DNA of 64,000 nt from Eledone cirrhosa (lineage: Eukaryota), in NCBI GenBank assembly GCA_964016885.1, contig OZ024757.1:6200001-6264000 (forward strand). The letters run 5' to 3'. Shown here piece after piece: positions 36,220 to 36,300 of the stretch. The position numbers and the translations under genes were made by a program. Under the pieces are notes generated by a model, which had not been told where the DNA came from, ran no database searches, and saw nothing but the letters and a program-made list of their open reading frames with translations. Each line of letters opens with the position of its first letter. The stretch's first letter is position 1.

Positions 36220-36268
36220 ATGCAAATTAGGCTGCTCAGCCGTTAATTTTCATAAGGAAAGTATATAC
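36220..36268 (+). promoter_or_regulatory. Putative snRNA-type promoter block: octamer ATGCAAAT, TAATTTTCATA and TATA-like element (in every full family A monomer and in family B)
   Basis: Motifs and spacing are conserved in the otherwise diverged family B monomer (57530-57577). Confidence 0.5.
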
Positions 36269-36300
36269 TTTCGAACGTTCAACTATCTGGCAGATGGGTA

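Follow-up and report, generated by a model that had tools for sequence, protein, structure and literature searches.

The window analyzed here (64,000 nucleotides of Eledone cirrhosa contig OZ024757.1) holds two families of tandem repeats, A and B, which are homologous type I hammerhead retrozymes with Penelope-like insertion anatomy. Their hammerheads, and the further A monomers that carry the promoter-like block described below, are located as follows.

36287..36356, plus strand: type I hammerhead of family A, predicted cut after 36338
57600..57685, plus strand: hammerhead of family B, likewise type I, with its core at 57630 and the predicted cut following 57660
37496..38565, minus strand: two more A monomers with block (37915 and 38419), the core of the second being mutated
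49260..56480, plus strand: five more A monomers with block (49582, 50086, 51994, 54040, and 56028), (TA)n between them

Stems I to III and the core that define a type I hammerhead are present in both monomers, with a bulged stem I and a short, palindromic stem III in each; in A, stem I is formed by 36301-36307 and 36339-36345, CTGATGA lies at 36308 and GAAA at 36329. An Rfam search of the window found no match at the gathering score, and the A hammerhead scored 18.5 bits against HH9, under the cut-off of 52. Hammerheads usually close the base of stem II with a G-C pair; the A hammerhead (36308-36333) has U.U there, and its relatives C.A or A.A. Monomers of A measure approximately 490 bp (456-514) and include an inner TA tract, those of B measure 466-469 bp, and both are arranged in tandem with a GC content of 0.33-0.36, such tandem low-GC monomers recurring at many loci as is characteristic of retrozymes. 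The A copies are near-identical genome-wide, which suggests recent amplification of this family. A third family, C (39236-39537 and 39769-40070), consists of minimal hammerheads in palindromic inverted pairs that lack an upstream octamer, and likely represents pseudo-LTR fragments of Penelope-like elements (PLEs).

Reverse-transcriptase frames lie beside the retrozyme-filled (TA)n arrays at 25896-29186 (plus strand), 33815-36088 (minus), 42110-45247 (plus), and 57939-60614 (plus). Two of the four have an APE-type endonuclease domain and one a PHD finger; they are LINE-type wherever a domain was seen, and the best match of one LINE frame of the window was to the octopod Argonauta (63%). Tandem 84-bp repeats resembling C2H2 zinc fingers occupy 19872-20267.

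Upstream of and overlapping the hammerheads, A and B share a promoter-like region with the following parts.

36219..36230, plus strand: TATGCAAATTAG, octamer-containing block of A, the same as the element at -77 to -80 of host U6, U6atac, MRP, and tRNA-Sec genes
57529..57540, plus strand: octamer-containing block of B, again TATGCAAATTAG
36236..36239, plus strand: TCAG, candidate PSE core of A, as in host U1, U2, and U5
57546..57549, plus strand: CCAC, weaker candidate PSE core of B
36244..36254, minus strand: TAATTTTCATA of A, imperfect inverted copy of the block and its predicted hairpin partner
57553..57563, minus strand: TAATTTTCATA of B, inverted copy of the block, complementary at 11 of 12 positions
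36262..36267, plus strand: TATA-like box of A, 43 bp from the block start
57573..57577, plus strand: TATA-like box of B, 44 bp from the block start
36292, plus strand: predicted transcription start of A, 56 bp from the candidate core and 30 bp from the TATA-like box
57602, plus strand: predicted transcription start of B

A preliminary description of this DNA had reported an octamer, a second motif, and a TATA-like run before both hammerheads, the octamer lying 88-100 bp ahead of the core. All three were recovered, as TATGCAAATTAG, TAATTTTCATA, and the TATA-like runs at 36262 and 57573, and the distance from octamer start to CTGATGA was measured at 88 bp in A and 100 bp in B. The same description regarded these blocks as the main islands shared by the two families; they are indeed the longest exact words in common (12 and 11 nt), but not the sole ones, as A and B are collinear homologues along the entire monomer and also share the ribozyme, AATTTCGTTT (10 nt, near the 3' end), and other short words. 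TAATTTTCATA begins 24 bp (A) or 23 bp (B) past the ATG of the block, the TCAG of A stands 17 bp from the block start, and both predicted starts are an A preceded by a pyrimidine, 56 bp past the candidate core. In the window, 9 of the 13 CTGATGA..GAAAC cores have the octamer, the remaining four being those of family C. Ten of the 11 ATGCAAAT sites fall in A or B copies, though the count alone is weak, with 5.4 expected and 2 of 100 shuffles equally high.

For comparison, host snRNA-type genes were taken by Rfam family (U6, U6atac, MRP, tRNA-Sec, RNase P, U1, U2, and U5). Seven of eight apparently intact Pol III-type loci have a block of the form TATG[CG][AT]AAT[TG]AG at -77 to -80 and a TATA box at -30/-31. 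This count leaves out 14 of the 17 U6 sites examined and 11 of the 12 U6atac copies, all without the block, which were judged to be retropseudogenes because they score lower, have changed 5' ends, and are flanked by microsatellites. The block-bearing loci comprise U6 at three places (an array and two single genes), the best U6atac copy, the single MRP gene, and two tRNA-Sec genes (the best 2 of 42 matches); the block is absent from the single RNase P gene. Block and TATA are 47-49 bp apart in these Pol III genes, and the A/B block is identical to that of one U6 gene (L022) and of both tRNA-Sec loci, against a background in which 70 of 99,439 positions match ATGCAAAT when one mismatch is allowed. 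Some units of the U6 array (L027, G000:C19) have a 192-bp insert at the TATA box, which moves the block from -78 to -270.

The block is absent near the start of all 17 U1, U2, and U5 promoters. In 16 of them, YCAG occupies -55 to -58, a TATA-like run lies near -30, and AATTA is found near -90. The core form in these Pol II genes is YCAGT at -55 to -58, with AATTAA approximately 33 bp ahead of it. When the RNase P start is placed 4 nt ahead of that given by Rfam, its TCAG falls at -62 and its TATA at -30; in six of the seven block-bearing genes, CCT occupies -61 to -63. From these few genes, we infer a single PSE core that would lie 5 bp farther from TATA in Pol III than in Pol II host genes. 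Such a shift resembles the 4-bp difference between PSEA-PSEB and PSEA-TATA distances in Drosophila (PSEB at 30-37, TATA at 34-41; PMC1761439), and features of the PSE and TATA have been described as deciding polymerase choice in taxon-dependent ways (PMC9841428).

The block extends beyond A and B. We searched the genome with a pattern of block, TATA at host distance, and CTGATGA, which gave 125 further matches (control, 0) and yielded the old, diverged families D to H (labels of this analysis). Among the matches listed, GAAA followed 6-30 nt past the core in 33 of the 49 loci examined, compared with 11 of 118 loci from a metagenome scan for block plus core; because so few of the latter had GAAA, and none of those 11 had TATA, the metagenome matches were taken as chance. 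Each of the groups D, E, F, G, and H has block and TATA among the matches listed, though a block common to all is partly built in since the search pattern required it. In D and H, TATA stands at +48 to +50, the host Pol III spacing, often with TCAG at +22/23, and in E, F, and G at +41 to +46 as in A and B, mostly with CA(G/C) at +18; among the matches listed, CA(G/C) is found at +18 in 14 of 19 short-spaced loci and at +23/24 in 18 of 30 long-spaced ones. Family E, related to A with 61-66% identity, lacks the inverted copy, and D to H may share the block by common descent. The block is absent from family C and from bystander hammerheads of other families in the loci examined. Copies of group H diverge strongly among themselves and could represent several families.

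The snRNA-like character that the preliminary description gave to the block was borne out, as the same 12-bp block occupies a fixed place in host U6, U6atac, MRP, and tRNA-Sec genes, so that the outcome it named as refuting, host snRNA promoters without the motif, does not apply to this group; the resemblance does not extend to U1, U2, and U5. Of its proposal that each monomer carries an snRNA-like promoter, the part resting on the block survives, as this is the host's U6-type element, but the PSE it assigned to TAATTTTCATA was wrong. Apart from one mismatch, TAATTTTCATA equals the first block read as its reverse complement, and it is lacking in host promoters: six of seven host promoters have no inverted copy (best 6-8 of 12), one tRNA-Sec promoter matching at 10 of 12. 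It varies among A subfamilies, where the second block is TAATATGCATA or TAATATACATA, and is absent from families D, E, G, and H (best 6-9 of 12, the chance level). We conclude that TAATTTTCATA is the predicted hairpin partner of the block and not a PSE. In both monomers the two are predicted to pair, locally as well as in circular folds, with a pairing probability mostly above 0.85 in the latter, and the entire promoter region folds into hairpins in A and B, from which RNA structure could maintain part of it. In family F the block has TGAG and the inverted copy CTCA, a compensatory change from U-A to G-C at a different spacing; covariation of the hairpin amounts to this one pair in nine related rows, matched in 6 of 500 shuffles, which is not a probability.

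An octamer is a POU site, and on the opposite strand the second block reads ATGAAAAT, ATGCATAT, or ATGTAAAT, all octamer-like. The two blocks might on these grounds be head-to-head POU sites that serve as an enhancer or nucleosome-positioning signal for nearby host promoters and not as a core promoter, but the distance between them varies (21-24 bp), four families lack the second block, and no TATA stands at host distance on the opposite strand, making this reading highly improbable. An antisense promoter starting from the second block was rejected in A and B for the same lack of TATA on the minus strand.

On these comparisons, the block of A and B is the host's own U6-type element. Since block and TATA-like box are the same as in host U6-type genes, each repeat copy likely has its own promoter, and a working promoter of some kind in A and B appears probable. 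For its type, our tentative preference, held with some reserve, is that block and TATA-like box in each monomer would form an internal hybrid promoter of snRNA type, likely served by Pol II and starting near 36292 and 57602. The candidate cores stand 26 bp (TCAG in A) and 27 bp (CCAC in B) before TATA, compared with 26-27 bp for YCAG in the host Pol II snRNA promoters. Before reaching the next block, a transcript from the predicted start would cross runs of T4, T7, and T4 in A and two T5 runs in B; the T7 and T5 runs resemble the oligo-T terminators of type 3 Pol III genes and would stop Pol III before the next monomer, which we counted in favor of Pol II. A 36-bp profile of 13 host Pol II promoters (U1, U2, and U5; leave-one-out scores 3 to 30) gives A -9.5 at +17 and puts the best site of B elsewhere than +17, both below all 13 host values, and gives family E +7.5 and +10.2 at +17; the A and B results speak against Pol II, those of E for it. 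The AATTAA element has a look-alike in A (5 of 6 matching, 32 bp before the core) and none in B, and the combined layout of A and B was found in no host gene examined.

Less probably, the promoter formed by block and TATA would be of the U6 kind (type 3) and serve Pol III, with the two elements set closer together. The T7 run of A or the T5 runs of B would then end most transcripts, and rare read-through would yield multimers, then promoter circles. The host distribution of the block argues for such a promoter, since by the counts above it is confined to Pol III promoters (7/8 versus 0/17 for Pol II), as do the exact host spacing of 48-50 bp kept by D and H, the 360 nt free of T4 runs past the predicted start of A, the likeness of its T7 run to host terminators such as that of MRP, and the transcription of Schistosoma hammerhead repeats by Pol III (PMC6765202). 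Yet the distance from block to TATA in A and B is 43-44 bp, not the 47-49 bp of host Pol III genes and thus 3-6 bp under it, A lacks the CCT core, and long tandem arrays are common even though terminator-like runs precede the next promoter.

The off-host spacing and the poor profile scores of A and B would also be in keeping with a block inherited as a relic from an snRNA-type promoter captured earlier, and maintained by RNA structure or as a reverse-transcriptase signal, with RNA supplied by host or LINE read-through as in the general retrozyme model. The strong predicted pairing of block and inverted copy in circular folds of both monomers and the compensatory pair of family F would fit this as well, as would the three LINE fragments flanking the array in the window and a review by which metazoan retrozymes are seemingly promoterless (PMC7761336). 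We nevertheless consider it unlikely, because D, E, G, and H retain block and TATA without an inverted copy, because pairing would permit both partners to drift jointly and yet the block stays at the host sequence while its partner varies, and because TATA occurs at two discrete spacings, each tied to a CAG core.

Copies of these repeats are abundant. The pattern of block, 65-95 nucleotides, and CTGATGA matches 18,443 times in the 3.0-Gb genome (reversed-pattern control, 0), so that the linkage of block and core, unlike the octamer count in the window, is far from weak, and tandem arrays of many monomers are common. No RNA run was listed among the six sequencing runs found to contain the element; comparison with B (four runs) and with the single-copy MRP locus identified X1 as DNA, and X5 and X6, which cover repeats but neither MRP nor the sequence beside it, were not used as evidence. 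Insertion ends were read in 40 genomic stretches and in the window, where three features illustrate their anatomy.

36672..36692, plus strand: T4/T7 runs and long 3' end of an A insertion, joined to (TA)n, 36 bp ahead of the would-be next block
35924..36137, minus strand: inverted 5'-truncated arm of the same A insertion, stopping at the short 3' end
57075..57962, both strands: two-armed insertion within (TA)n, A arm on the minus and B arm on the plus strand, junction near 57464

The 3' ends adjoin (TA)n at two homologous sites per family, at 396 and 454 in A and approximately 365 and 434 in B, counted from the block, the long end lying upstream of the block by 36 bp (A) or 32 bp (B). Outside the window, 17 of the 19 two-armed insertions with both outer ends resolved combine one long with one short end, the exceptions being L258 and L267; four further two-armed insertions, whose ends are unresolved, were left out. 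The 5' ends are scattered, and in the 40 stretches and the window they show no clustering at the predicted cut site or predicted start. An inverted 5'-truncated arm, a one-sided tail, and a microsatellite target are the marks of mobilization by PLEs. A Pol III stop as the origin of the 3' end of A insertions was tried and rejected: this end lies 8 nt beyond the T7 run, is homologous to the B end, and stays at the same site even where the run is broken, which speaks likewise against a Pol III promoter. In the mixed insertion at 57075-57962, the A arm ends at the short and the B arm at the long end; with two templates in one event, A and B would use the same machinery. The arms pass uninterrupted through the cut site and promoter region, suggesting that the template was a circle or multimer and not a linear cleaved monomer, and the scattered 5' ends likewise are as a circular or multimeric template would give. 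Three near-identical A insertions approximately 2 kb apart (51832-56480) have the same inverted junction as those at 36137 and 49499, which suggests a local tandem duplication in the (TA)n tract or an assembly effect.

Taking up the hybrid Pol II promoter again, we propose the following course. The block would bind a POU/Oct-type factor beside the PSE core (TCAG in A, CCAC in B), itself 26-27 bp ahead of the TATA-like box at the spacing of host Pol II snRNA genes, and Pol II would read past the T7 and T5 runs into the next monomers. Two hammerheads would then excise a monomer, which would close into a circle with the promoter of the next unit, and priming by a Penelope-like reverse transcriptase would take place in (TA)n, at the fixed site that closely precedes the promoter, after which the enzyme would roll around the circle. 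With the promoter inside the rolled circle, new insertions would regain a promoter that an external U6-type promoter would lose, and the second block would likely be kept because it pairs with the first in a structured circle. A broader version, which we regard as speculative and on balance doubtful, is that an entire clade of invertebrate retrozymes, with at least seven groups in this one genome, is transcriptionally self-sufficient through a hybrid of the host Pol III-gene block with a PSE-TATA unit, and that A, B, E, F, and G switched from Pol III to Pol II spacing by a 5-bp loss, which would have allowed read-through of T runs, promoter circles, and, through reverse transcription of the Penelope type, an expansion beyond 18,000 copies.

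The promoter of newt satellite 2 consists of an octamer and a PSE, and that of Schistosoma Sm-alpha of tRNA-type boxes. Satellite 2 (Coats, Zhang, and Epstein, 1994, as cited in PMC2220036 and PMC6765202) is the precedent: like A and B, it consists of hammerheads repeated in tandem whose stem III is short, and its internal snRNA-type promoter, used by Pol II, has a predicted counterpart in A and B. It belongs to a different phylum, and its promoter was demonstrated by experiment, whereas the putative one of A and B is read from sequence; the likeness, which the preliminary description took for convergent, may stem from convergence or from old common descent. In the Sm-alpha hammerhead SINE-like repeats, as predicted for A and B, every tandem unit has a promoter ahead of its hammerhead, an upstream unit driving the downstream one, but the promoter is of Pol III (PMC6765202, PMC2220036), in contrast to the upstream snRNA-type block with TATA seen here. 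Compared with host genes, A and B combine the 12-bp block of the type 3 Pol III promoters (U6, U6atac, MRP, and tRNA-Sec) with candidate cores at the 26-27 bp that separate YCAG from TATA in the Pol II snRNA promoters (U1, U2, and U5).

Metazoan non-LTR retrozymes were defined by Cervera and De la Pena (2020; PMC7229834), who proposed mobilization by PLEs; in the main text of that paper, "promoter" is used only of T7 and no element promoter is described. Like them, A and B are tandem low-GC (33-36%) repeats with one type I hammerhead each, a self-paired predicted circle, and proposed PLE mobilization. They differ in monomer length, 456-514 bp in contrast to 170-400 nt (PMC7229834), and in having a host snRNA-gene block in nearly every copy, unlike the seemingly promoterless metazoan retrozymes of the review (PMC7761336). 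A preprint (Li et al., 2026; 10.64898/2026.07.22.740005) links retrozymes to PLE pLTRs, its main text mentioning neither promoters nor cephalopods. Penelope-like elements themselves have an inverted arm, a one-sided tail, and a microsatellite target (Craig et al., 2021; PMC8557442), and A and B share with them the inverted 5'-truncated arm, the tail at one end only, and the (TA)n targets, but are noncoding and have longer tails (58 bp in A and 69 bp in B, compared with 30-40 bp; PMC8557442). A literature search covering few subscription papers found nothing on retrozymes of cephalopods, nor on any mollusc U6 promoter that has a proximal octamer.

Here, we describe a host snRNA-gene upstream element within a large retrozyme clade, which on the comparisons made is a real feature of these repeats. 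According to the review, animal retrozymes seem to lack promoters and to depend on read-through (PMC7761336). The host element found here, at a fixed place in nearly every copy, allows both the start base and the polymerase to be predicted and the 5-bp spacing to be put to a test. The comparison with host genes gives a first sketch of the host snRNA promoter code, useful for U6-driven tools in a cephalopod host, and the insertions, including the mixed A/B insertion, supply direct anatomy for Penelope-type mobilization of retrozymes. A promoter riding within the circle would explain how an upstream-type promoter survives retrotransposition.
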